64,000 nucleotides of DNA from Candidatus Aminicenantes bacterium (GCA_003141555.1 PLMN01000023.1:79916-143915), one strand, 5' to 3'; shown: positions 7,357-21,508, counted from the stretch's first letter. The notes: generated by a model not told the origin, from the letters alone. Translations and numbers: made by a program.

Positions 7357-7386
7357 TTGACACTAACTCTTTGCTTTCATTATGAT
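7357..7386 (+). promoter_or_regulatory. Sigma-70-like promoter: TTGACA-N18-TATGAT, immediately upstream of ATG 7397 (possible leaderless transcript)
   Basis: Perfect -35 hexamer at 7357-7362 and a 5/6 -10 at 7381-7386, in an AT-rich intergenic region. The predicted TSS is about 7393-7395. Confidence 0.3.
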
Positions 7387-7396
7387 TACAGGCGCC

Positions 7397-10300
7397 ATGG
7401 GGGATATCGTCGATAACATTCCGTGCCCGCATTGTCATGCCCCGAATCCGGCGAACGGCAGTTTCTGCAACAAATGCGGCAAGGCCATGGACAACAGGCC
7501 TGCCACTCTGACCTATCCTCCATCCTTCCAAACCACGCTCCGAGAAGAGCTTTCGTTTTCTCCCGGAGAAAGCTTCGGAAAGAGATACCGAATCATTGAA
7601 GAGATCGGACGGGGCGGCATGGGCCGGGTCTATAAGGCTCAAGACCTGGACCTCGGGATCACTGTGGCCCTGAAGATGATCCAGCCGAAATACTCTTCGA
7701 GCCGGACGATGATCGAACAATTCAAGAAGGAAACTCTTTTGGCCAGGTCCATCTCCCAAGAGAACGTCGTCCGGACTTATGATTTCGGGGAAATCAATCA
7801 CATCAAGTATATCTCGATGGACTACATCAAAGGGGGCAATCTCAGCGATCTGATCCAGACTTCGGGACGGCTGAGCCTGGAGACCTGTCTTCGCATCATG
7901 GTCCAGATCTGCGAAGCACTGAAGGCCGCCCATCATAAGGGGATCATTCACCGGGATCTGAAACCCCAAAACATCATGATCGATCGTTCCGGCAAGGTCT
8001 ATGTCACGGACTTCGGCCTGGCCAAGTCCCTCGCCGCCCAAGAAACGCCCGGCTTCAAAAAAGTTTATGGGACCCCGCCATATTTTTCGCCGGAGCAGGC
8101 ACGCGGGGAGGACGCCGACGAACGGTCCGATATCTATTCCCTGGGCGTCATCCTCTTCGAGATGATCACGGGACAACTGCCCTTTCAAGCCAAGACGATC
8201 GAGGGCTATATCCAAAGGCACACCTCGGAGAACGCCGTCTCCCCGTCGAAAATCAACCCTGGCATCCCTGCCCCCCTAGAAAAAATCATCATGACCTGCC
8301 TAGAAAAGAAGAAGGAAAACCGATACCAGAGCGTCGACGCGCTTCTCAAGGATCTGGATGTTCAAAAAAACGCCTACGAACAGAGCTACGCCAAGACCCG
8401 GAGGAAGCGCTTCGGGCGAGCGGCCCTGGCCGGAGGGCTGATTCTCGCGTTCATGATCGGCGTCTATTTCATAAGTCTGAAGAAACGGGCCGCCGGACCC
8501 GCCGCTTCTCAAGAGCGAAGAACCGCCGTCGCCGTTCTGTACGCGGTCAACACGTCCGAGGATCGAGAGTTGAACCAATATCGGTGGGTGATCACGGATC
8601 TCATGATCACCGGGCTGGCCCAATCGAAATATCTCAGCCTCCTGCCTATGGATCGGCTTATCCAGATCCTGACGAAGATGAAGCAGCAGGACGCCGGCCA
8701 ACACGTTTCAGAGACGCTCGATAAGATCGGATCAGCCGAGAACGTCGAATATTTTATCCTGCCTAGCCTCGTCAAAGCGGGCGGAAATCTTTGGATCAGC
8801 GCCAAAATCCGAAAAGCAGGCGACAAAGGCATCGTCGACACGACCAAGGTCCAGGGAAAGCTCGAGGACCTCCTGACCATGGTCGAAGATCTGAATACGC
8901 AGGTCAAATCGAAATTGGTTTCGTCCGCCGAAGACATCGCCGGTGATTATCACCAGGACTTGGGCAAGATCACGACTACGTCACTCGAAGCACTTGGCTA
9001 TTATGTCGAAGGAGAACGGCTCTATGCCCTTGAAGACTTTAAGGGCAGCGTCCGGGCCTTGGAAGAGGCCGTCAAATTGGACGCCAACTATGGGCTGGCG
9101 TATTGGAAATTGGCCGAGAATTACGATTATCTGGGATCTACAGATCTGGCCAATAAGAACCTCGAAAAGGCCTTAGCTTTGCTGGATCGCTTTTCCGTGC
9201 GGGATCGTTATCTTGTCCGGGGATATGCGGCCATTCATCTGGATGAACCCCCGGCCAAGGCCATCGAAAGCTATAAGAAATTGCTGGCGCTTTATCCCAA
9301 TGACGAGATGGGCCTAGCCTATCTCGGCTCGCTTTATCGGAACATGGAGGAATGGGAGGCGGCCTTAGAGCAGTTCGAGAAAATCTTGAAGATCAACCAA
9401 AGATTCCAGTTTGCCTATGTCAATCTGGCCTTTATTTACACGGCGAAGGGCTGGTATGCAAAAGCCCTTGATCTCATCCAAGCGAGCGAACGTATTTTCC
9501 CCGAAATGCAGTTCTTCCCCAAGCAAATGTCGCTGATCTACCTGGTCCAAGGCAGATTCGATGAAGCCGCCGCCTTGGTTCAAAAAGCCTTGACCCGCGC
9601 GCCCGACGACAACGCTAGCCTAGAATTTTACGGGATCATCGAACATCTTCGGGGAAATTTTGTTTCCGCCCGGAACATCTACGAACAGCTCCGAAAAAGA
9701 GAGGAAGGGACCGGCGGGCTGCGCGGTCAAATTTGGATGGGACTTCTTTATTTATTGCAGGGTGAGTTCCATCAAAGCGAGGGCGAGTTTCAGGAGGGGC
9801 TGAAGATCGCCCATCGGTTGAAGATGGAAGACGAAGAGCTGGAATTTCGTCGGCTGCAGGCGTATCTCTATCTCCAAAGGAAGCGCTTTGCCGAAGCTGC
9901 CGAAACAGTAGGAGCCTTAGTCACGATCTGTAAAAATGCCAAGAGATCCGATTTCCTGAAATCAGCCCTGCTCCTGCAGGGGATCATCGAGCTTGGGCTG
10001 GGGCGGATCGAGGAAGCCAAAAACACGTCCCGTCAGCTCCGGCAGGTGATCGAAAAAATAGGCTGTCCTAAATACATGAGATATTCTTATTATCTCCTGG
10101 GCAAGATCGCTTTGACCGAAGGCCGGCCCGCGGAGGCCCTCGATGATCTGGGAAAAGCCTTGGCCTTTCTTCCTCATCAACGGGAACAACGGGACGAGCA
10201 TGCCTTCTTCATGGAGGTTCTGGCCGAAGCCTTTGAGCAGGCCGGGGATCTCGGAAAGGCCACGGAGACGTATCAGAATATTCTGACGCTCACGACCGGG

Positions 10301-10504
10301 CGGTTGTGGTGGGGCGACATTTATGCGCGAAGCCACTACCAGTTGGGATGCCTCTATCAGAAAAAAGGATCCTCGGCGGAAGCGGTGTCCCATTTCGAGA
10401 AGTTCCTCGAGCTATGGAAAAACGCCGACCCCGGCCTGCCGGAGATTGAAGATGCGAAAAAACAGGTAGCCCTTCTCAAGAAAGGGCCGCCGCCTTGGTC
10501 TTGA
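7397..10504 (+). CDS. Zinc-ribbon / Ser-Thr protein kinase / TM / TPR-repeat protein (kinase 1)
   Basis: N-terminal CPHCHAPNPANGSFCNKCG zinc ribbon. Hanks kinase motifs (VALK; HRDLKPQNIMID; DFGLAK; GTPPYFSPE). TM helix around FGRAALAGGLILAFMIGVYF. Long C-terminal TPR array. Alternative start ATG 7382 overlaps the predicted -10. Markedly lower GC than flanking genes. Confidence 0.85.
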   Translation: MGDIVDNIPCPHCHAPNPANGSFCNKCGKAMDNRPATLTYPPSFQTTLREELSFSPGESFGKRYRIIEEIGRGGMGRVYKAQDLDLGITVALKMIQPKYSSSRTMIEQFKKETLLARSISQENVVRTYDFGEINHIKYISMDYIKGGNLSDLIQTSGRLSLETCLRIMVQICEALKAAHHKGIIHRDLKPQNIMIDRSGKVYVTDFGLAKSLAAQETPGFKKVYGTPPYFSPEQARGEDADERSDIYSLGVILFEMITGQLPFQAKTIEGYIQRHTSENAVSPSKINPGIPAPLEKIIMTCLEKKKENRYQSVDALLKDLDVQKNAYEQSYAKTRRKRFGRAALAGGLILAFMIGVYFISLKKRAAGPAASQERRTAVAVLYAVNTSEDRELNQYRWVITDLMITGLAQSKYLSLLPMDRLIQILTKMKQQDAGQHVSETLDKIGSAENVEYFILPSLVKAGGNLWISAKIRKAGDKGIVDTTKVQGKLEDLLTMVEDLNTQVKSKLVSSAEDIAGDYHQDLGKITTTSLEALGYYVEGERLYALEDFKGSVRALEEAVKLDANYGLAYWKLAENYDYLGSTDLANKNLEKALALLDRFSVRDRYLVRGYAAIHLDEPPAKAIESYKKLLALYPNDEMGLAYLGSLYRNMEEWEAALEQFEKILKINQRFQFAYVNLAFIYTAKGWYAKALDLIQASERIFPEMQFFPKQMSLIYLVQGRFDEAAALVQKALTRAPDDNASLEFYGIIEHLRGNFVSARNIYEQLRKREEGTGGLRGQIWMGLLYLLQGEFHQSEGEFQEGLKIAHRLKMEDEELEFRRLQAYLYLQRKRFAEAAETVGALVTICKNAKRSDFLKSALLLQGIIELGLGRIEEAKNTSRQLRQVIEKIGCPKYMRYSYYLLGKIALTEGRPAEALDDLGKALAFLPHQREQRDEHAFFMEVLAEAFEQAGDLGKATETYQNILTLTTGRLWWGDIYARSHYQLGCLYQKKGSSAEAVSHFEKFLELWKNADPGLPEIEDAKKQVALLKKGPPPWS

Positions 10505-11651
10505 GGAACCGCTTTCTCTTTTTGTTTTCGAACCCACTTATGAAAAGCTCTCTTTCTCTCCTCATCAGCCCCGCCATCCGGCACGTCTGAGGAGTGATCT
10601 TGCCGATCGCCCGACTGGATAAGGCGGCCACGACGGGACAGACCCGGCACGATTCGACCTCCTCGCACATGACGCAACGCCTCCCTGGCGTATAAAAATT
10701 GTCCATTGCCAAACCGGCGATGGCCGTAATGGTTCGGGCGTAGATCGCCTTAGGATCGCGGAGGAATGAATCGACCTTTCCAAAACCATATTTTCCCCTC
10801 TCGAGTTCCCCCTCTCTCCCATCGAAATAATGAGGGAAGAGGAAACATCCCCAAAGGTTTCCATCCGCCGCCAAGGCCATCCGGTCCTGACCTGCGGCGC
10901 AACTGAAGACGGCTTTCTTATGCGTTCTTTTCATATCATCCCAGGGGATATCTTCGAGCCGCTCATACGTTGCGAGGAAAAATTTTCGGACGGCTGCGAT
11001 CTCCTTTTTCATGCGGACCAGGGAGGATGGCGTCCATCGCCGTTGGGAGGAGAAGCCGATCCGGATCTTGCGAACGTCGAGGTGGATGATAAGCTCGATG
11101 GATTTCGATAAGAGCCCGACCGTCTCTGCCGTGAAGACGCTGTTCGTTTCGAGCGATATCCTCCGCCGTTTCAACATCTCGGGGATAAGCGAAATGAAGT
11201 AATCAAAGGTGCCTTTTTTTCTGGAAACGTCCTGGGCCCAACCGTCGAAGCTTAAGAGGAGGGAAAACGCGTGTTCGTCCAGGAACTGCAGAATTTCCTC
11301 GGTCAGGAGACTGCCGTTGGTGGTAATGGCGTAATGGATCTTGCGCTTTCGCGCCCGGTTCAGACGTTCGAGATAAGCGACCGTTTCGCTGATTTGATCG
11401 AAGGCCAGAAGAGGTTCCCCGCCGTAAAAATTGATATAACACTCCTCCGTCAGGCACGGCCAGAAAAAATCAAGCGCCTTCTTGATCGTCCGGATGTCCA
11501 GCCACCGATCCGCTTTTTTCTGATAACAATACGAACAACGAAAATTGCAGCGGTCGGTCAGGATGATCGTGAAGGCAGAAAACTCCCTCTTGTTTGGATC
11601 GCCGCCGCGAATTGCGTTGATTTGCTCAGAGAGGAACGCTCGCTCCTCCAT
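10476..11651 (-). CDS. Radical SAM enzyme with C-terminal SPASM domain (anSME/peptide-maturase class)
   Basis: CNFRCSYCYQ is a CxxxCxxC near the N-terminus. C-terminal Cys-rich SPASM pattern (CAAGQDRM...GCFLF...CVMCEEVESCRVCPVVA...C). GGCGGAG RBS. ATG at 11651 lies 23 nt downstream of the small ORF's stop. Confidence 0.9.
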   Translation of the reverse strand: MEERAFLSEQINAIRGGDPNKREFSAFTIILTDRCNFRCSYCYQKKADRWLDIRTIKKALDFFWPCLTEECYINFYGGEPLLAFDQISETVAYLERLNRARKRKIHYAITTNGSLLTEEILQFLDEHAFSLLLSFDGWAQDVSRKKGTFDYFISLIPEMLKRRRISLETNSVFTAETVGLLSKSIELIIHLDVRKIRIGFSSQRRWTPSSLVRMKKEIAAVRKFFLATYERLEDIPWDDMKRTHKKAVFSCAAGQDRMALAADGNLWGCFLFPHYFDGREGELERGKYGFGKVDSFLRDPKAIYARTITAIAGLAMDNFYTPGRRCVMCEEVESCRVCPVVAALSSRAIGKITPQTCRMAGLMRRERELFISGFENKKRKRFLKTKAAALS

Positions 11652-11674
11652 CTCCGCCGAAGATCAACTAAGCT

Positions 11675-11875
11675 TCAACCGCTTATGCTCGGGATTAGCC
11701 CTGTACACTGAATGCCTTCCGGGCCATAGAGGACTTGGATGATTTCATCTAGTGCCTTTCTCGCCAAATCCAGCTCTCCCGCCTGCGCCGGCTTCACTTT
11801 GACACCATCCAGGAACGCGTCAAGTCTTTTAAAACAGAGAGGCAGGTTCGGCGTTTCGACTACTTTCTTTTTCAT
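11675..11875 (-). CDS. 66-aa small peptide directly upstream of the SPASM radical-SAM gene: candidate RiPP precursor
   Basis: Sequence MKKKVVETPNLPLCFKRLDAFLDGVKVKPAQAGELDLARKALDEIIQVLYGPEGIQCTGLIPSISG. AAGGAGGGG RBS 4 nt before the ATG; own promoter-like element upstream. Low GC like the maturase. Confidence 0.5.
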   Translation of the reverse strand: MKKKVVETPNLPLCFKRLDAFLDGVKVKPAQAGELDLARKALDEIIQVLYGPEGIQCTGLIPSISG

Positions 11876-13277: not shown

Positions 13278-14090
13278 CTAGCCTTTCTTTGCGATCGCCA
13301 GCAGGTGGTAGCTCGCGCCGAGGAGGCTTTCCTCCTCTTCGACGCGCTTCATATACTTGAGGGCGAATTCGTAACAGGCATCCTTCCTGTCGAGCCAGCC
13401 GTTGAGCTCGCTCATGAGCCCGACCGGCCCCTCGACGCCGATCAGCTTCTCGCAGGCCAGGCCGGCCCCGACGATCTCCTCGCGAAGCTCCGCCGGCTGG
13501 TGGAAATAGGCCGTCGTCCAGTAATCCTTGTCCGGGGCGATGTTCTCGTGCCTCCCGTCCCGAAGGTCCCGGTCCACGATCGCTTCGAATCTCGGGTCAT
13601 CCAGGAGATTCAGCTGGAATCCGCTGAAGAGCGAGCCGAAACGCGAGATGGCCGCGCAGAATACCCGGCCGCCCGGTTTCAGCACCCGGGCGCTCTCCCT
13701 CAGAACCCGCTCTCGATCCGCCCGCTCCTGGAGGTGATAGAGCGGTCCCATCAGCAGGACTAAATCGGCGAAGCCGTCGGGATACGGCAGCGAACGGGCG
13801 TCGCCGATCTCCATCGATTCGAGCGCGATCGACAGTTCGCGGGCCCGCGCCCGGGCGGTCTCGATGTGCGCGGGGACGAGATCGCGGAGGTGGACGCGGT
13901 GCCCCAGCCCGGCCAGCCAGAAGGCGTAGGCGCCGGTGGCGCCCGCCACATCCGCGATCACGAGCGGGCCCGCCGTCAAATACCGCCCGATGATCTCCTT
14001 GGTCCGGACGAACTCGAACCGGGCGACGGTCGAGAGGCGGGCATCCTCGATCTTCTCTTTTTCGTAATATTCGACGATTCTTCGACTCAT
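13278..14090 (-). CDS. Class I SAM-dependent methyltransferase
   Basis: Motif I VIADVAGATGAYAFWLAGLG; methyltransferase type-11-like fold; 270 aa. Confidence 0.85.
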   Translation of the reverse strand: MSRRIVEYYEKEKIEDARLSTVARFEFVRTKEIIGRYLTAGPLVIADVAGATGAYAFWLAGLGHRVHLRDLVPAHIETARARARELSIALESMEIGDARSLPYPDGFADLVLLMGPLYHLQERADRERVLRESARVLKPGGRVFCAAISRFGSLFSGFQLNLLDDPRFEAIVDRDLRDGRHENIAPDKDYWTTAYFHQPAELREEIVGAGLACEKLIGVEGPVGLMSELNGWLDRKDACYEFALKYMKRVEEEESLLGASYHLLAIAKKG

Positions 14091-14256: not shown

Positions 14257-15498
14257 ATGAAGAACATCCTGAAGCGAATCGCCATCCTGTTTCTCACGTC
14301 GGCCGCCGCTCTCTCGGCGGCCGTCCAAGAACCCGGCCCGACGCCAGGCCGGACATCGGCCGCGCCGGACCGCCTGTTCAGCCAGGTCGTCCTCCGCCTC
14401 CGGGATGGGCGTTTCGTGACGGGGCTGCTTCTCGGCTTCGAAGATGACGCCATCGTCCTCCGCGTCGGGAAAAACGACGTCAAGACTCCTCGAACCGACC
14501 TGGCCCAGGTCACCATCGAGCGAGAAAGAAAGGCCACCGGATTTCTGCTCAACGGCATGCTGCTCGGATTCCTGGCCGGAAATCTATTTTTTTCCCACGG
14601 CAGCGGCAATCCGACCGGCTATGTCGGGTATGGGTCCGCGTTCAGCGCTTTCCTCTCGAACGTGGTCTATTTGGGCGCGGGCGGAGCCGTCGGCTATCTG
14701 GCCGGCCTGATCGGCGATCCCACGCACGTCCTATTCACCTTTCCGGACCTCGCCCCCGAGCGCAACGCAGAATGGGAAAGCCTGAAGAAATATGCCCTCG
14801 CCGGCGACACCGCCGCCGGCAACGACGCCCGGTGGCGCCTGTCTGTCCAATCGGCCTACGTGTTTCCCAGGGTGTCGAGCCGTTATCGAAGCGTGATCCG
14901 GGCCGCCGGCTACGAGACCTTCGACCAATACTACGGCTCCTGGGCGGATTCGAACCTCGCCATTTTGCGCCGCGTCGGCCTGTCCTACGCCGCGGGCAAG
15001 CGCCTCGAAATCGGCGCATCGATCATGCCCTTGGGAGAGCGGAGCAACTACGGCTGGAGCTACGAATCCTCGAGCGACAACGCCTGGGCTGAACGGCAGG
15101 TCGAACAATCTCTGTCGGGAACGGGCTATTATCTGACCGGGAGCTGGCAGGTCCTGGATTCGAAAGCCGCGGGCGGCGTGCATTGGAAGATCGGCGGGGG
15201 TCTGGGCGCGGCTCACGTCCGCTTCGGCATGACCGGCAGCGGCGAATCCTACAGCAACGATCCTTACTATTTCAACACGTTCGAATATTCGATCTCCGTC
15301 TCCAAGACGGTCGCCGGCGGCCTGGCGTTCACGGAATTCGATTGCCGCCTTTATGGCGGAATTTCCCTGGGCGTGATGGCCGATTTTGCCGTCACCATGC
15401 CGGTGTCCATTCCCGGGATTCCGGCGGCCGGCATCCCCGCTCAAAAGCTGCCTATCGGCAACGGCTCCCTGGGAATCGGTATCACTTGGATTTTTTAG
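14257..15498 (+). CDS. Secreted hypothetical protein (signal peptide; N-terminal beta-module + glycine-zipper hydrophobic segment; C-terminal aromatic residue, beta-barrel-like)
   Basis: GAGGAGGGG RBS. MKNILKRIAILFLTSAAALSAA signal peptide. Ends ...GIGITWIF. Confidence 0.7.
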   Translation: MKNILKRIAILFLTSAAALSAAVQEPGPTPGRTSAAPDRLFSQVVLRLRDGRFVTGLLLGFEDDAIVLRVGKNDVKTPRTDLAQVTIERERKATGFLLNGMLLGFLAGNLFFSHGSGNPTGYVGYGSAFSAFLSNVVYLGAGGAVGYLAGLIGDPTHVLFTFPDLAPERNAEWESLKKYALAGDTAAGNDARWRLSVQSAYVFPRVSSRYRSVIRAAGYETFDQYYGSWADSNLAILRRVGLSYAAGKRLEIGASIMPLGERSNYGWSYESSSDNAWAERQVEQSLSGTGYYLTGSWQVLDSKAAGGVHWKIGGGLGAAHVRFGMTGSGESYSNDPYYFNTFEYSISVSKTVAGGLAFTEFDCRLYGGISLGVMADFAVTMPVSIPGIPAAGIPAQKLPIGNGSLGIGITWIF

Positions 15499-15513
15499 AT
15501 GAACGGAATAGCT

Positions 15514-15540
15514 GGCCCGCGGCATCCGAGGCCGCGGGCC
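15514..15540 (+). other. Intergenic stem-loop GGCCCGCGGC-7nt-GCCGCGGGCC with no U-tract (possible RNA processing/stability element)
   Basis: Perfect 10-bp inverted repeat between the stop at 15498 and the RBS of the next gene. Confidence 0.3.
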
Positions 15541-15551
15541 GAGGAGGAGCC

Positions 15552-16121
15552 ATGAAAAAGATCATTGCCGCGGCAACCCTGATCGCTCTCGTGAACCTGC
15601 TCACGGGCTGCGCGTCCACAGGAGGAACGGGCGACCTGTTCAACTCGTCCGGCGCCCCGCACGTGGACGTCCAGGCGGAGGATTTCCCGGAGCTGAGGTT
15701 CGTCACGACCGGCGGGGAATCCTTTCGGGGAAAGCTGACCCGGGTCGAGGGAGACATTGTGACCCTTAAACCCTTTCCCTATTGGAACATTCCGGACGTC
15801 CGGATCCCTCTGGACGACATTCATCAGATCGAGCTGACGGGATCCAAAAGCCACACCGACACCGGTTTCCTTGCGGGCTTCAGCGTCCTGTTCATCCCCG
15901 TAGGAGCCATCGGCGCGGCGAAGAGCAAATACGACGTCGACTTTTCAAATTGGCTGCTCGGAAGCGCGATTGTGGGCGCGGTCGGCGGGCTGCTCGGCCT
16001 GGTCATCGCCGCCGTCAGCGATACGGGGAAAACCTCGAAATTCAAATTCTACGCCATGTCCGCGCCGGAAAAAATAGCCGCGCTCCTGAAGATCATGGGC
16101 CGCGCCGGCTCGCGGCCCTGA
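15552..16121 (+). CDS. Lipoprotein, hypothetical (N-terminal beta-module + glycine-zipper segment)
   Basis: GAGGAGGAG RBS. Lipobox LLTGC. GxxxG-rich hydrophobic region GAIGAA...GAVGGLLGLVIAAV. Confidence 0.7.
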   Translation: MKKIIAAATLIALVNLLTGCASTGGTGDLFNSSGAPHVDVQAEDFPELRFVTTGGESFRGKLTRVEGDIVTLKPFPYWNIPDVRIPLDDIHQIELTGSKSHTDTGFLAGFSVLFIPVGAIGAAKSKYDVDFSNWLLGSAIVGAVGGLLGLVIAAVSDTGKTSKFKFYAMSAPEKIAALLKIMGRAGSRP

Positions 16122-16143
16122 AAGGCACGCAAGGAGAACCGCC

Positions 16144-17736
16144 ATGAACAAGAACCTCTGGAAAATTACCGCCCTCCTTCTCATCCCGGCCCTGGCCGTC
16201 GCCTGCGGGGGGGCCTTGGTCAACGTGGCGCCGGACGAATCGGCCCGGATCGCAGCCGCAAAATCCGTGACCGTCAGGACGACGGACGGCCGCGAATTGA
16301 CCTTCGGAAGCGCGAGGATCGAAAACGAAACGATCATCGGCGTCCTGGAAAACGGCGAGAAGATGGAGATCGCTTTCTCCGCCGTCCAAGCCGTCAAGGC
16401 CAAGGATCGCGGAGTAAATCTCACGATTCCCGTCTTGATCCTCGATTTCGCGGTCGCCGCCTGGCTGGGAATCGGCGCCGCGACCGCTCCCTCGCCGCCG
16501 CCGACCAATTCCTGCCCGCTGATCTATTCCTTCGACGGGCAGGCGTTCGTCCTCGAGGCCGAGCCCTACGGCGGGGCGGTCGTCAAGGGCCTGCAGCGGA
16601 CCGAATGGATCGGCCTCGACCGCCTGGCCGAGATCGGAGGCACCTTCAAGCTCCGCGCGGCCAACGATCTCAGCGAGTCCGAATACCTCGACGAGCTGAA
16701 GCTCGTGGTCGTGGACCACGCGCCCGGGGCGCGCGCCCTTCCCGACCCGAACGGACGCATCCACATCATCTCCGATCCTATCCCACCGTCGAGCGCCGTC
16801 ACGAAGGGCGGCCTCGATGTCCGCGCGGCTCTATCACAAAATGACCGCTCGTTCTGGGAGCCGGCTTATCCGGCGCCTTCCGCCGTCTCCTCCGCGCCCT
16901 CCCACCCCGCCGGCCCCGCCCCCTCGCCCGAGGAAATCGCCGAAGCCACGCCCATCGACTCGCTCCGCGACGAGCTGATCCTCGAATTCCCAAAGCCGGC
17001 CGGCGCCCGGACGGCCGCCCTCGTGGCCAACGCCTGGACGACATTCTGGGGATCGGACATCGCCAAAAGCATCATCTCGCTCCACGGCCGCGATCTGCCC
17101 CAATGGACGGCCGCGGTCAACGCCCACGGCCCCGAATATCGCGAGATCATGAGCTGGTTCCTGACCGAGGAGCTCTACATGCTCAAGGTCGAGGTCGAGA
17201 CCACGGCGGGCTGGAAGCCCAGGACCATGATTTTCGGCGGCGGACCCATCGTCGCCCGCGACAAGGCCTATCTGATGGACATCTCCGACGCGGCGGGCGG
17301 CACGCTGAAGCTCCGCCTCCGGCCGCCCGCCGGATTCTGGCGGTTCAATTCGTTCGCCATCGATTACGGCGATGCCGCGCCCCTGCGCGTCACGGAAATC
17401 GCCCCCGCCCGGGCCCGCGACGCCGCCGGGCGCGACGTCCGCCAGAACCTCGCGGCGAACGATGGGGACTATTTCGTCATGCCCCATACCGGGGACTACG
17501 CCGAGCTGCTGTTCGCGGCGCCCCCCGCTCCTACGCGGTCCGCGCGGAGCGTCATCCTCAAAGCGTCGGGCTACTACGATCCGCGTCTCTCCGCCGACGG
17601 CGAGCCGCGCCTTGATCTGCTCCGCCGGATCCACTCCGAGGCGGGCGCGACGCTGCGCTTCGCCTACGCGGAACATCTGAGGCGACTCGCGGCGGCCGCC
17701 GCGGCGCCCCCCGCACACGCACCCGCACTCCGATGA
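16144..17736 (+). CDS. Lipoprotein, hypothetical (530 aa); its stop overlaps the start of the downstream radical-SAM gene
   Basis: AAGGAGAA RBS. Lipobox LAVAC. ATGATGA overlap with the next gene at 17733. Confidence 0.7.
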   Translation: MNKNLWKITALLLIPALAVACGGALVNVAPDESARIAAAKSVTVRTTDGRELTFGSARIENETIIGVLENGEKMEIAFSAVQAVKAKDRGVNLTIPVLILDFAVAAWLGIGAATAPSPPPTNSCPLIYSFDGQAFVLEAEPYGGAVVKGLQRTEWIGLDRLAEIGGTFKLRAANDLSESEYLDELKLVVVDHAPGARALPDPNGRIHIISDPIPPSSAVTKGGLDVRAALSQNDRSFWEPAYPAPSAVSSAPSHPAGPAPSPEEIAEATPIDSLRDELILEFPKPAGARTAALVANAWTTFWGSDIAKSIISLHGRDLPQWTAAVNAHGPEYREIMSWFLTEELYMLKVEVETTAGWKPRTMIFGGGPIVARDKAYLMDISDAAGGTLKLRLRPPAGFWRFNSFAIDYGDAAPLRVTEIAPARARDAAGRDVRQNLAANDGDYFVMPHTGDYAELLFAAPPAPTRSARSVILKASGYYDPRLSADGEPRLDLLRRIHSEAGATLRFAYAEHLRRLAAAAAAPPAHAPALR

Positions 17737-18959
17737 TGACCAGCGACAGGTTTCCGCGGAGCCTGGGAATCAAGCCCCTGAAGTTCCCCCGCTTTGACAC
17801 ACCGCACGCCACGATCGAGACGAACCGCACCTGCGACATCCGCTGCTCCGCCTGTTACAACCTGAACCGGACCCACGTCAAGACGATCGCCGAAATCCGG
17901 GCCGAGATCGATCTGGCCCTGTCCCTGCGCAACCTGGCGATGATCACCCTCCTCGGCGGGGAGCCGACGCTCCATCCCGGGCTGGCGGAGATCGCGGCTT
18001 ACGTAAAAAGCAAGGGCCTGACCTGCCAGATCCTGACGAACGGGCTGACCATTCTCAAAGACGAAAGCGGCCGCTACCTCGCCGGGCTGGCCGCCGCGGG
18101 CGTGGACCGGATCGTCCTCCACGTGGATTCGGGCCAGAGCCACGTCCACGGCGACATCGAGGCAGCGCGGTGCGCCCTGTTCGCCAAGCTCGAGGCGGCC
18201 AAGATCCGCTTTTCCCTGTCGCTCACGATCTACGACGGCCGGCAGGGAGAGATTCCGGACCTTGTCCGCCGCTACGCGTCCTACCGGTATTTCGACGGCA
18301 TTCTGGCGATCCTGGCCCGCGACGCCCCTCCCGTCAAGATCCAACATCCCGAGCTCGCCCTCGAATACGACGCCCTCGCGCGATCGCTCGCCGTTCAGCC
18401 CGTGGCTTACGTGCCGTCGAGCCTGAGCGATACCGACGTCCACTGGCTCGTCTATTTCTATTTCATGGACGCCGGGACCGGCGAAGCGTTCGCCCTTTCC
18501 CCCCTCGCCTATCGGATCTTTCTGCGGGCCCACAAGCTCCTTCGCGGCCGGAATCTGCTCAATGCGGCCATCCCGCCGCGCCTGACGCCGCTCCTCGCCG
18601 CGGCCGCGGGCGCGGGCGAGGTCCTGCTCCATCCCGGGCGCCTGTCCGCCTTCGCCGCGTTCCTGGCGCGCCCGGCCCGCTCGCAGGCGCAGGAAGCTCC
18701 TCGTCCGCGCCGCCCGCGGCGATCACGGCTCCGCTTCCACTACATCGCCATCCAGACGCCGCCCGAGTTCAACGAGCGGCGGGGAATCCATCAGTTTTGC
18801 TACAGCTGTCCGGATGCGACGATCCGGAACGGGAAATTGACGCCCGTCTGCGTGGCGGACCGGGTGAGCCCGCTCCCGGGCGAAGCACGGGCCGTAGACG
18901 CCGCGTTGGCGCGCGCCGTCTACGGTCCCATGCGGGAGCCGGCCGGGCTTACAGCTTGA
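17733..18959 (+). CDS. Radical SAM enzyme with a C-terminal cysteine-containing auxiliary region
   Basis: CDIRCSACY CxxxCxxC motif. C-terminal CYSCPD...PVC. Translationally coupled to the upstream lipoprotein gene. Confidence 0.8.
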
Positions 18960-20150: not shown

Positions 20151-20245
20151 AAAAAGCCCGGCGCTAGAGGGCCGGGCTTGGTTTAATTCTTGTCTTGAGG
20201 AGACAAAAAAAGCCTGGGCTAAATTCCTTCTAGCTCAGGCTACCG
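20151..20245 (-). promoter_or_regulatory. metK 5' leader carrying two consecutive hairpin+U-tract (terminator-like) structures; candidate SAM-responsive riboswitch/attenuator expression platform
   Basis: On the minus strand: GCCUGAGCU-11nt-AGCCCAGGC followed by UUUUUUU (20240-20204). Then AAGCCCGGC-8nt-GCCGGGCUU followed by UUUUAUU (20180-20146). This lies about 35-130 nt upstream of the metK ATG. Confidence 0.35.
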
Positions 20246-20409
20246 GTTTTTTTAGCACCTTGTTTTTCGCGGCTGCAATAGACCTCAAATCAGTCCCGCG
20301 TTCGGTTCTCAAAGATCGTGTCCACGGATCACGCGATCCGGGAAGCGAGAAAAATAGCACCGATAGGCCGGGAAGTCAAGAAAAAATTGCGGCACCGCGC
20401 CCATTCAAT

Positions 20410-20437: not shown

Positions 20438-20464
20438 GTGTCCAGCTTCCTTTTGGGGGGAACC

Positions 20465-21508
20465 ATGAAAAAGATCGCCATTTTGGCCCTCGTGCTCGCC
20501 GGACTGTTTTCGCAGGCCGCCGCCCAAGCAGACAAAAATAAGACATCGACGGCTGCCAAAGAACTCAAAATTAGTATGAACAGCAAAGGAACGGTAAGCG
20601 AGATATCCTGGAACGCGAAAACGATTTATCCCCCTTCGATTAACGACCAACCCTTCCCCCTCGACACGTCATTGGATCCTTTTATTGTCCGCTTGCCGGG
20701 TGGAGACGCTTTCCCAAAAGAGCTGAACGTCGGGACCACGGTCACGATCATGATCTTTATGGCCAAAGATATGGCTAAGCATGAATTCAAAATCACGGTC
20801 ACTCCCAAGAAAAGCAAGTATGAATTGGTCCCGATTTTCACGGGAGAAACGAAACCGGCCATGAAGTATGCCGCTGACGGCACCAAGATAATTCCGCCCC
20901 CTCCCGATTTCGTGTCTTCGTTCATCCTCGACGAAAGCGGGACAACCTACGAGATTAAAGTCACTCGATTGGGAACTGACCCGGAAAAAGACAAAGACAA
21001 GGATATTTTCACGGAGAATCTGCAGACCCGGGCCCGTTACCGCTTCGGCTCGCACGTAGGAGTATTCATTCCATTCGGGCAGTCAAGCGAATACAGCCTG
21101 GGGTATGCGACTCCCGCCGACGCCAACGCCACCATCATGGAAAGCAACCGGCGGAACGTGACCATGATCTTCATCGGCTCGTTCTATCCATTCAACTTCG
21201 AGCCGGATGGCGAGTGCTTATCCTATCGGCGCATTCAGCTGAATCTGGCCACCGAGTTGTCCAGCTCTATATTCAAGAAGATCTATTTCGGGCTCGGCTA
21301 CGATCTCACCTATGCTTCGATCAGCCTCCTGGGCCGTTTCGCCACGGTCCAGGAGCTCCAGAGCGGATTCAAGCCGGGCGACCAGATCACAGGCGGCCTC
21401 AAATCCGTGCCCACCGTCTCCAGGAACAAATTGGACTGGGGACTGACGATCTGCATGCCGATGAACTTGATTATCGCCTGGCTGGGCAAATCGCTGGGGT
21501 TGAAATAG
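20465..21508 (+). CDS. Secreted hypothetical protein (signal peptide), low-GC gene
   Basis: MKKIAILALVLAGLFSQAAAQA signal peptide. G-rich RBS. Lower GC than flanking genes. Confidence 0.7.
   Translation: MKKIAILALVLAGLFSQAAAQADKNKTSTAAKELKISMNSKGTVSEISWNAKTIYPPSINDQPFPLDTSLDPFIVRLPGGDAFPKELNVGTTVTIMIFMAKDMAKHEFKITVTPKKSKYELVPIFTGETKPAMKYAADGTKIIPPPPDFVSSFILDESGTTYEIKVTRLGTDPEKDKDKDIFTENLQTRARYRFGSHVGVFIPFGQSSEYSLGYATPADANATIMESNRRNVTMIFIGSFYPFNFEPDGECLSYRRIQLNLATELSSSIFKKIYFGLGYDLTYASISLLGRFATVQELQSGFKPGDQITGGLKSVPTVSRNKLDWGLTICMPMNLIIAWLGKSLGLK

Follow-up and report, generated by a model that had tools for sequence, protein, structure and literature searches.

A conserved gene cassette of Aminicenantes-like bacteria joins three envelope proteins built on one N-terminal anchor unit to an uncharacterised radical-SAM enzyme

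The YgdI/YgdR (DUF903) lipoproteins (PDB 2rb6, 2jn0, 2ra2 and 5cai) consist of a lipobox cysteine followed by a five-stranded beta-barrel of around 50 residues; the function of YgdI/YgdR is itself unknown. The SlyB/PCP-type 'glycine-zipper 2TM' outer-membrane lipoproteins combine a lipid anchor, a Gly-rich helical hairpin and a small beta domain. Cytoplasmic radical S-adenosylmethionine (rSAM) enzymes may act as maturases of exported proteins: AtsB (an anSME) matures the periplasmic sulfatase AtsA, and QhpD matures QhpC. Other rSAM enzymes comprise MoaA (GTP 3',8-cyclase), in which the auxiliary-cluster motif is spaced CX2CX13C, and the lipid enzymes of the Tes/GDGT-MAS and bacterial Mss type. 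The locus presented here lies in a 64,000-nucleotide stretch of DNA from a Candidatus Aminicenantes bacterium (GCA_003141555.1 PLMN01000023.1:79916-143915; hereafter the window). It consists of four consecutive genes, A to D, and resembles the YgdI/YgdR, SlyB, AtsB/AtsA, MoaA and Tes/Mss systems, apparently being a member of none of them. The genes are arranged as follows (positions counted from the first letter of the window; aa, amino acids).

14257..15498, plus strand: gene A, 413 aa; signal peptide, beta-module, two Gly-rich hydrophobic helices and a beta-rich C-terminal domain of about 230 aa
15552..16121, plus strand: gene B, 189 aa; lipoprotein with beta-module, Gly-zipper helical hairpin and C-terminal KIMG tail
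16144..17736, plus strand: gene C, 530 aa; lipoprotein with beta-module, one hydrophobic helix, Pro-rich linker and two jelly-roll beta-sandwich domains with helical inserts
17733..18959, plus strand: gene D, 408 aa; radical-SAM enzyme of an uncharacterised family of about 390 aa
18949..20148, minus strand: metK, convergent on D (context only)

The N-terminal anchor unit of proteins A, B and C is homologous in all three: a signal peptide or lipobox leads into a small YgdI/YgdR-like beta-barrel, behind which lie Gly/Ala-rich hydrophobic helices. This anchor unit is newly recognised. The four genes form one tight, self-contained and conserved plus-strand cassette, typical of Aminicenantes-like bacteria, and its invariant core is C with a downstream rSAM gene. 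An independent gene call on the identical public contig gave the same four products (413, 189, 530 and 408 aa), and the closest public-genome matches to D and C are metagenome-assembled genomes of Candidatus Aminicenantes. An earlier annotation made by a model from the DNA alone (the sequence-only reading) had called all four families uncharacterised, and this proved right: none has a Pfam or NCBIfam equivalog or a PDB sequence match, and no description of the cassette was found in the literature.

The same reading had pointed to a recognisable module shared by the three N-terminal regions. Pairwise BLASTP was too weak to decide on the homology of A, B and C (A-B, E = 0.006; B-C and A-C, not significant), and profile-profile comparison was used in its place, with family alignments of 37 sequences for C, 40 for B and 8 for A. 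Whole-family hhalign comparisons gave a probability of 97% for B versus A (E 1.2e-10, 168 columns), 97.5% for B versus C (E 6.9e-12, 108 columns) and 74% for A versus C (E 2.8e-5). Because signal peptides and hydrophobic helices can inflate profile scores, the alignments were trimmed to the beta-module of about 55 residues. The modules alone still aligned in register, with probabilities of 88.6% for A-B (E 2.6e-6), 95.4% for B-C (E 2e-8) and 85% for A-C (E 6e-6). The three N-terminal regions do align, and significantly so at the profile level, both as whole families and as the beta-module alone. Additionally, the hidden Markov model of B matches the N-terminus of A homologues directly (E 3e-4 to 7e-4). 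No other open reading frame (ORF) in the window carries the beta-module, which occupies the following positions.

14368..14532, plus strand: beta-module of A, aa 38-92, from module-only hhalign
15675..15845, plus strand: beta-module of B, aa 42-98, from module-only hhalign
16252..16419, plus strand: beta-module of C, aa 37-92, five strands, YgdI/YgdR-like fold by Foldseek to 2rb6

In the AlphaFold2 model of C the module is a small five-stranded barrel. Foldseek aligned it with PDB 2rb6 at a probability of 1.0, a template-modelling (TM) score of 0.71 and a root-mean-square deviation of 1.6 A over 50 columns, and 2rb6 clusters by sequence with YgdI/YgdR/DUF903 chains. C shares with YgdI/YgdR the order of lipobox cysteine and barrel. 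The likeness is nevertheless one of fold only, as no DUF903 Pfam match was found for A, B, C or their families at E <= 1; moreover, hydrophobic helices come after the barrel in all three proteins, and A and C bear large extra domains. More generally, the three proteins and their families gave no Pfam, NCBIfam or PDB-sequence match above noise. The resemblance to SlyB/PCP-type proteins is likewise confined to architecture: in the anchor unit the beta domain precedes the hairpin, and no Gly-zipper Pfam match was seen at E <= 1. Gly-zipper_Omp and Rick_17kDa_Anti were not among the 25 families listed of the 26 matched at that threshold by 40 B-family members, and they were not found for the C family.

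B is the bare anchor unit, with nothing further added. Its family comprises 108 cluster representatives, mostly of about 185 aa, among 1.84 billion proteins searched. The lipobox L-L-T-G-C20 has its Cys conserved in at least 90% of 40 sequences, the module contains a nearly invariant P-x-P-Y-W motif (PxPYWN in B itself), and the protein ends in a short conserved tail with a KIMG motif. Elsewhere the B-like unit is fused, as an N-terminal anchor, to Sel1 or MORN-variant repeat domains, which fits a general anchor unit. A begins with a non-lipoprotein signal peptide followed by a complete B-like unit. C has the lipobox L-A-V-A-C21 (Cys at least 90% conserved among 37 sequences) and one module, while longer relatives have two. 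The signal peptide and lipoboxes proposed from the DNA alone were thus recovered, with an ordinary signal peptide in A, Cys20 in B and Cys21 in C; B and C are predicted lipoproteins on the basis of a basic N-region, a hydrophobic region and a lipobox with an invariant Cys. The hydrophobic segments behind the barrels, and the C-terminal motif of A, are located as follows.

14542..14712, plus strand: two moderately hydrophobic Gly-rich segments of A, aa 96-152, from a hydropathy scan; aligned by hhalign to the B hairpin
15861..16022, plus strand: two hydrophobic Gly-rich helices of B around an acidic SKYDxDY loop, aa 104-157, from the family alignment and a hydropathy scan
16426..16494, plus strand: hydrophobic helix of C, aa 95-117, with K/R on the N-terminal side only
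15466..15495, plus strand: outer-membrane beta-signal-like motif at the C-terminus of A (...S-L-G-I-G-I-T-W-I-F), read from the sequence

A GxxxG-rich stretch had been assigned to each protein. This stands for A and B, which have two Gly-rich helices, but not for C, whose single, strongly hydrophobic Ala/Gly-rich helix (hydropathy 2.1-3.4) has no clear GxxxG zipper. The C helix is flanked by 2-3 K/R on the module side and 0-1 after it; the flanks of the B helices are basic and the loop between them is acidic. As the cleaved N-terminal signal puts the module in the periplasm, helices that span the inner membrane would break the positive-inside rule. The C-terminus of A has hydrophobic residues at -1, -3, -5, -7 and -9 and ends in Phe, and this pattern is kept in all A homologues (33-73% identity) and in the 403-aa protein of another cassette-bearing locus, L086, which belongs to the A family by hhalign (probability 100%). 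From this beta-signal, the C-terminal domain of about 230 aa in A appears to be of outer-membrane type, although A has no outer-membrane-protein match in Pfam or among PDB sequences. Because of this conflict with the positive-inside rule, and because A, which has the common unit, appears outer-membrane-bound, we favour helices embedded on the outer-membrane side in a SlyB-like manner; the reversed charge bias and the occurrence of the unit on an outer-membrane-type A would fit such outer-membrane-embedded helices. An envelope location of all three proteins is suggested by their lipoboxes and signal peptides, the beta-signal of A, the CBM-like folds and Pro-rich linkers of C (described below) and the anchor role of the B-like unit elsewhere.

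The spacers within the cassette are short, 53 nt between A and B and 22 nt between B and C, and the C stop and D start codons overlap by 4 nt (ATGA), in line with the overlap of C and the rSAM gene reported by the sequence-only reading. Shine-Dalgarno-like GGAGG/AAGGAG sequences precede the cassette genes, and consensus scans of the plus strand revealed no intrinsic terminator and no convincing sigma-70-type promoter within the cassette. A, B and C are predicted to be co-transcribed with D, and C to be translationally coupled to D.

The order A-B-C-D occurs in the window and, between unrelated flanks, in L082, L169 and L086 (identity in L086 is 43% for C and 36% for A); B-C-D is found in about 15 loci and C-D in about 16. 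The 4-nt C/D overlap recurs in the window, L082 and L169. In a D-centred survey, C lies directly upstream of D in Aminicenantes-type loci, often with B before C. A C-centred survey covered 80 metagenomic loci in addition to the earlier ones and contained 78 C genes with at least 700 nt downstream. The gene after C was D in 36 cases and a member of a different rSAM family in 24-25, so that 61 of the 78 C genes have an rSAM gene directly downstream; no rSAM follows in 17. Members of the alternative family (rSAM2) are 46-77% identical to one another but only 23% identical to D in the core. They match PF04055 and, weakly, SPASM (18.5 bits against 21.5), and their best NCBIfam models, GeoRSP and PqqE, stay under the cut-off. 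The usual arrangements are B-C-D, A-B-C-D, C-D and A-C-rSAM2, and some A-C-rSAM2 loci contain a third rSAM. In one subclade (L005, L006, L007, L010 and L139) D is immediately followed by an anSME-family gene (arrangement C-D-(C)-anSME), and in L006 this gene (9180-10334) scores 404.7 bits with TIGR03942, for which the cut-off is 349. The low-GC locus L129 (22-8432) encodes a divergent acyltransferase of the BioF/Kbl/serine-palmitoyltransferase family together with a plus-strand sulfotransferase, two D-like rSAM paralogues, C and rSAM2. In L127 (7283-7673) only short fragments of D follow C, representing a decayed gene.

These data bear on whether D is a mere operon neighbour of an envelope-protein cluster, with no functional coupling. 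The 17 C genes without a downstream rSAM, the presence of D without C in many phyla and the decayed D would agree with such independence. However, C and D stay neighbours down to about 40% identity, between flanks that are unrelated, start/stop overlaps of C and D are frequent, and a slot that lacks D is usually filled by another rSAM. Chance adjacency of C and D is, given this conservation, unlikely, and we consider the absence of any coupling very improbable.

D belongs to the radical SAM superfamily (PF04055, 50.0 bits against a gathering cut-off of 29.5), and its family of about 390 aa is conserved end to end. The two cysteine motifs read from the DNA alone, C34-x3-C38-x2-C41 and C356-x2-C359-x13-C373, are indeed conserved.

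17832..17855, plus strand: CX3CX2C radical-SAM motif of D (C34, C38, C41), from the family alignment
18798..18851, plus strand: C356-X2-C359-X13-C373 motif of D, invariant in 28 sequences

All six cluster-motif cysteines are invariant or nearly so in the family, C98 is invariant too, and the protein carries a GGEPTLHP motif and an invariant binding motif. The arrangement of an N-terminal CX3CX2C and a C-terminal CX2CX13C is that of MoaA, and the latter is a probable MoaA-like auxiliary Fe-S site. MoaA was also the top Foldseek match of the D AlphaFold2 model (1tv7, E 2.9e-8; predicted local distance difference test score, pLDDT, 88), followed by viperin, SkfB and HydE. The PDB fold matches are limited to a core of about 220 residues, beyond which D has a helical insert and a C-terminal half with a beta-hairpin; Foldseek found no PDB counterpart for either. 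D is not MoaA (30.1 bits with TIGR02666, against 284) and not Tes (34.3 bits with NF045702, against 450, over residues 30-136 only). Its match to GDGT-MAS (7tol; E 3.8e-7, about 105 residues) covers the rSAM core alone. All NCBIfam equivalogs stay far under their cut-offs, the best being TrsS (53 bits against 490). Pfam and NCBIfam scans gave no SPASM match (PF13186, TIGR04085) and no RRE domain, and the anSME model TIGR03942 (cut-off 349 bits) was not among the best 25 of the 43 NCBIfam matches of D. As judged from these comparisons, D fits no characterised rSAM subfamily. Many members have a moderately hydrophobic helix at about residues 275-295 with K/R on both sides; with Tes/GDGT-MAS and Mss, D shares hydrophobic elements in an rSAM protein and, in other phyla, a membrane-lipid gene neighbourhood. 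By a published criterion (PMC13159169), a protein counts as Mss if it is at least 30% identical, with E <= 1e-50, to the enzyme of T. maritima or of T. ethanolicus.

The sequence-only reading had linked the rSAM orthologues to such lipoproteins. The co-occurrence is borne out in many Aminicenantes-type loci with unrelated flanks, but in other phyla D occurs without A, B and C. D orthologues from Bacteroidota, Ignavibacteria, Calditrichota and other bins are 40-48% identical over the full length and keep the C-terminal motif, and no A-, B- or C-like protein was found within 8 kb of them. They lie there in tight operons with ICMT-like/PlsC acyltransferase fusions, ICMT-like/PAP2/LGT-like fusions, an ABC ATPase, PLP (pyridoxal phosphate) enzymes and a SPASM rSAM. 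Almost always, D is accompanied by an unannotated cytoplasmic protein of about 330 aa, c2, with an N-terminal KWYFD motif and no Pfam match (11 loci: L003, L004, L008, L009, L012, L014, L015, L017 and L021-L023); in L003, c2 is fused to ICMT-like and LGT-like membrane domains. The lipid-cluster genes c2, c4 and c6 were not found elsewhere in the window. In a poorly resolved neighbour-joining tree, C-linked D sequences and those linked to c2 or the lipid clusters are intermixed.

The membrane-lipid-type neighbours and the exporter seen in other phyla, together with the inseparability of C-linked and c2-linked D, lead us to favour a lipid or lipid-linked substrate. We propose, tentatively and with a likelihood that we put somewhat short of even, that D tailors a membrane lipid used by the envelope proteins A, B and C. 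The conservation of the cassette between changing flanks, the assembly of lipid-type, C and rSAM genes in L129, the basic-flanked helix of D, the lack of a PDB fold match for its C-terminal half and the probable envelope location of A, B and C likewise speak for this proposal. D would be a membrane-associated rSAM enzyme with a canonical cluster and a MoaA-like second cluster site, acting on the cytoplasmic side of the inner membrane to tailor either a membrane lipid or a small molecule linked to a lipid. Its envelope clients would be A, B and C, probably on the outer-membrane side, where they would be anchored in, bind or organise the membrane containing the modified lipid. Such a client role would explain their production in fixed proportion with D. 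In other phyla, D would work with the cytoplasmic c2, a lipid acyltransferase, a phosphatase, LGT-like enzymes and an ABC exporter.

Several observations weigh against this proposal. Typical Aminicenantes cassettes have no adjacent lipid-enzyme gene, so the lipid would have to be a common one. In around one third of the C loci D is replaced by the unrelated SPASM-like rSAM family, a class that usually modifies peptides or proteins. The likeness of D to the lipid enzymes Tes and GDGT-MAS is limited to the rSAM core. That the clusters of other phyla act on lipids is itself presumed from family names, and lipid binding by A, B and C is putative.

D is always paired with a single beta-rich protein, C in some loci and c2 in others but never the two together, and this is also compatible with a two-subunit inner-membrane enzyme. 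The C helix would then be truly transmembrane and the beta-sandwich domain would be cytoplasmic, serving, as an analogue of c2, as the substrate-presenting partner of the rSAM, while the modules that A, B and C expose in the periplasm would connect the enzyme to the outer membrane. The fusion of c2 to ICMT-like and LGT-like membrane domains in L003 and the strong hydrophobicity of the C helix (2.1-3.4) are in keeping with this arrangement. Nevertheless, the charge bias of C is opposite to the positive-inside rule (2-3 K/R before the helix, 0-1 after it), and CBM-like jelly rolls with Pro-rich linkers are typical of extracytoplasmic proteins. Homology of c2 and C was tested and rejected (hhalign probability 0.2%), and A has the anchor unit too, yet must cross the inner membrane to reach the outer one. 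We regard a two-subunit enzyme of this kind as clearly improbable.

The large domain of C is pertinent to a further explanation.

16510..17703, plus strand: large conserved domain of C, aa 123-520, opening with an S-C124-P-[FL]-[IV]-Y-S-F-D-G motif after the Pro-rich linker

It has 26 invariant columns among 37 sequences, and the AlphaFold2 model of C (mean pLDDT 88.6) shows two jelly-roll sandwiches with helical inserts. Foldseek searches with full-length C gave matches at the domain level only, to CBM61, CBM32 and ephrin-receptor jelly rolls (probability 0.97-1.0), and none of 172 C homologues has a Pfam domain. Cys124 is kept in nearly all C loci, with or without an rSAM gene downstream. 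A single C, in L162 (861-2516), has Cys124 replaced, by Phe; no rSAM lies downstream of it. A correlation of Cys124 with an adjacent rSAM was considered and rejected, as the residue is kept nearly everywhere.

The strongest rival to the lipid proposal is that D, or the SPASM-like rSAM, modifies C in the cytoplasm before Sec export, A and B being paralogous envelope partners of mature C; the likely target would be Cys124, which is invariant and sits where the large domain begins. C with an rSAM is the minimal conserved unit (61/78), two unrelated rSAM families, one of them SPASM/twitch-like, occupy the same slot, and an anSME-family gene also follows D in the subclade mentioned above. The cassettes have no other biosynthetic genes. 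The exported domain of C bears one invariant Cys close to its N-terminus, and the protein lacks a twin-arginine motif, which points to export in an unfolded state and is compatible with modification beforehand. In AtsB/AtsA and QhpD/QhpC, similarly, an rSAM gene is co-transcribed with the gene of a Sec-exported protein and the mature client has a conserved Cys close to its N-terminus. However, D is neither an anSME nor a SPASM enzyme and has no RRE domain, C lacks both the sulfatase fold and the C-x-P-x-R motif, and D also occurs in other phyla without any A/B/C-like client within 8 kb, in operons of small-molecule or lipid type. Since C genes that have no rSAM next to them keep Cys124 equally well, its conservation does not discriminate between the lipid and the maturase models. 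The NCBIfam family TIGR04133 ('rSAM_w_lipo'), an rSAM/SPASM family named for its lipoprotein partner, offers a parallel in that an rSAM is encoded with a lipoprotein; the model was not among the best 25 matches listed for D or for rSAM2 of L084, and A, B and C have no NCBIfam match. On balance, we consider modification of C by the rSAM doubtful, and the chief competitor of lipid tailoring all the same.

A more speculative idea, to which we give little credence, is that D or the SPASM-like rSAM installs a novel modification on a dedicated set of envelope lipoproteins, either at the Cys-linked lipid anchor or at Cys124, which follows an internal signal-like segment in C. LGT is the Cys diacylglyceryl-transferase. 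This idea would unify the occurrence of D beside LGT-like and ICMT-like enzymes in FCB-group bacteria with its occurrence beside lipobox proteins in Aminicenantes.

The surroundings of the cassette vary. D and metK are convergent, as the sequence-only reading had described, and their 3' ends overlap by 11 nt, but the suggested link to metK as the supplier of SAM found no support: metK follows D only in the window and in its close relative L082, and elsewhere the cassette is succeeded by genes for a fucosidase, for RRM proteins or for a beta-lactamase-fold protein. The candidacy of metK as a functional partner was rejected for this reason. Upstream of A lies a methyltransferase gene (13278-14090) in divergent orientation, and no riboswitch or leader was detected upstream of A. 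One structured element was found in the A-B spacer.

15512..15543, plus strand: GC-rich hairpin just 5' of the B ribosome-binding site (-27.4 kcal/mol, z = -2.7)

With no T-run behind it, this hairpin is not a terminator, and it was rejected as a conserved element because the homologous spacer of L082 has no hairpin.

A sub-threshold match to the SAM-II/SAM_alpha riboswitch models lies upstream of metK (20231-20309, minus strand; 23.9 bits against a gathering score of 36, E 0.038), and just past metK a 356-aa secreted protein without Pfam or NCBIfam match is encoded (20438-21508, plus strand). The first rSAM gene of the window (10476-11651, minus strand) encodes a 391-aa SPASM-type protein that scores best with the model for PapB, a ranthipeptide maturase (149 bits; cut-off 340). 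It was rejected as an orthologue of the anSME-like gene that follows D elsewhere (28% identity, core only). Directly upstream of it, a called ORF of 66 aa (11675-11875, minus strand) has two Cys and no family, and the two genes (10476-11875) may be a precursor/maturase pair for a ribosomally synthesised and post-translationally modified peptide. Several unrelated loci have large TPR-fused Ser/Thr-kinase genes no more than a few kb from the cassette (window 7382-10504, plus strand; L086 1-7691; L084 1-1739), and in L170 (2754-9258) Ser/Thr-kinase genes fused to Tricorn/PD40 beta-propeller domains lie near the cassette. This recurrence may reflect the mere abundance of kinase genes in these genomes.

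The cassette ties four unannotated families, three of envelope proteins and one rSAM subfamily, into one conserved unit in a widespread, uncultured lineage, and points to an unknown envelope or lipid function. The association of C with either of two interchangeable rSAM families, and of D with c2, turns this into a tractable question of a lipid change versus a shift in protein mass. Either reading, if true, would mean a new rSAM reaction and an insight into how the envelope is built, possibly with a class of helix-anchored outer-membrane lipoproteins. If D or its substitute instead modifies lipoproteins, the cassette would represent a new branch of lipoprotein maturation, dependent on radical-SAM chemistry, whose products enter a complex of A, B and C in the outer membrane or on the surface.

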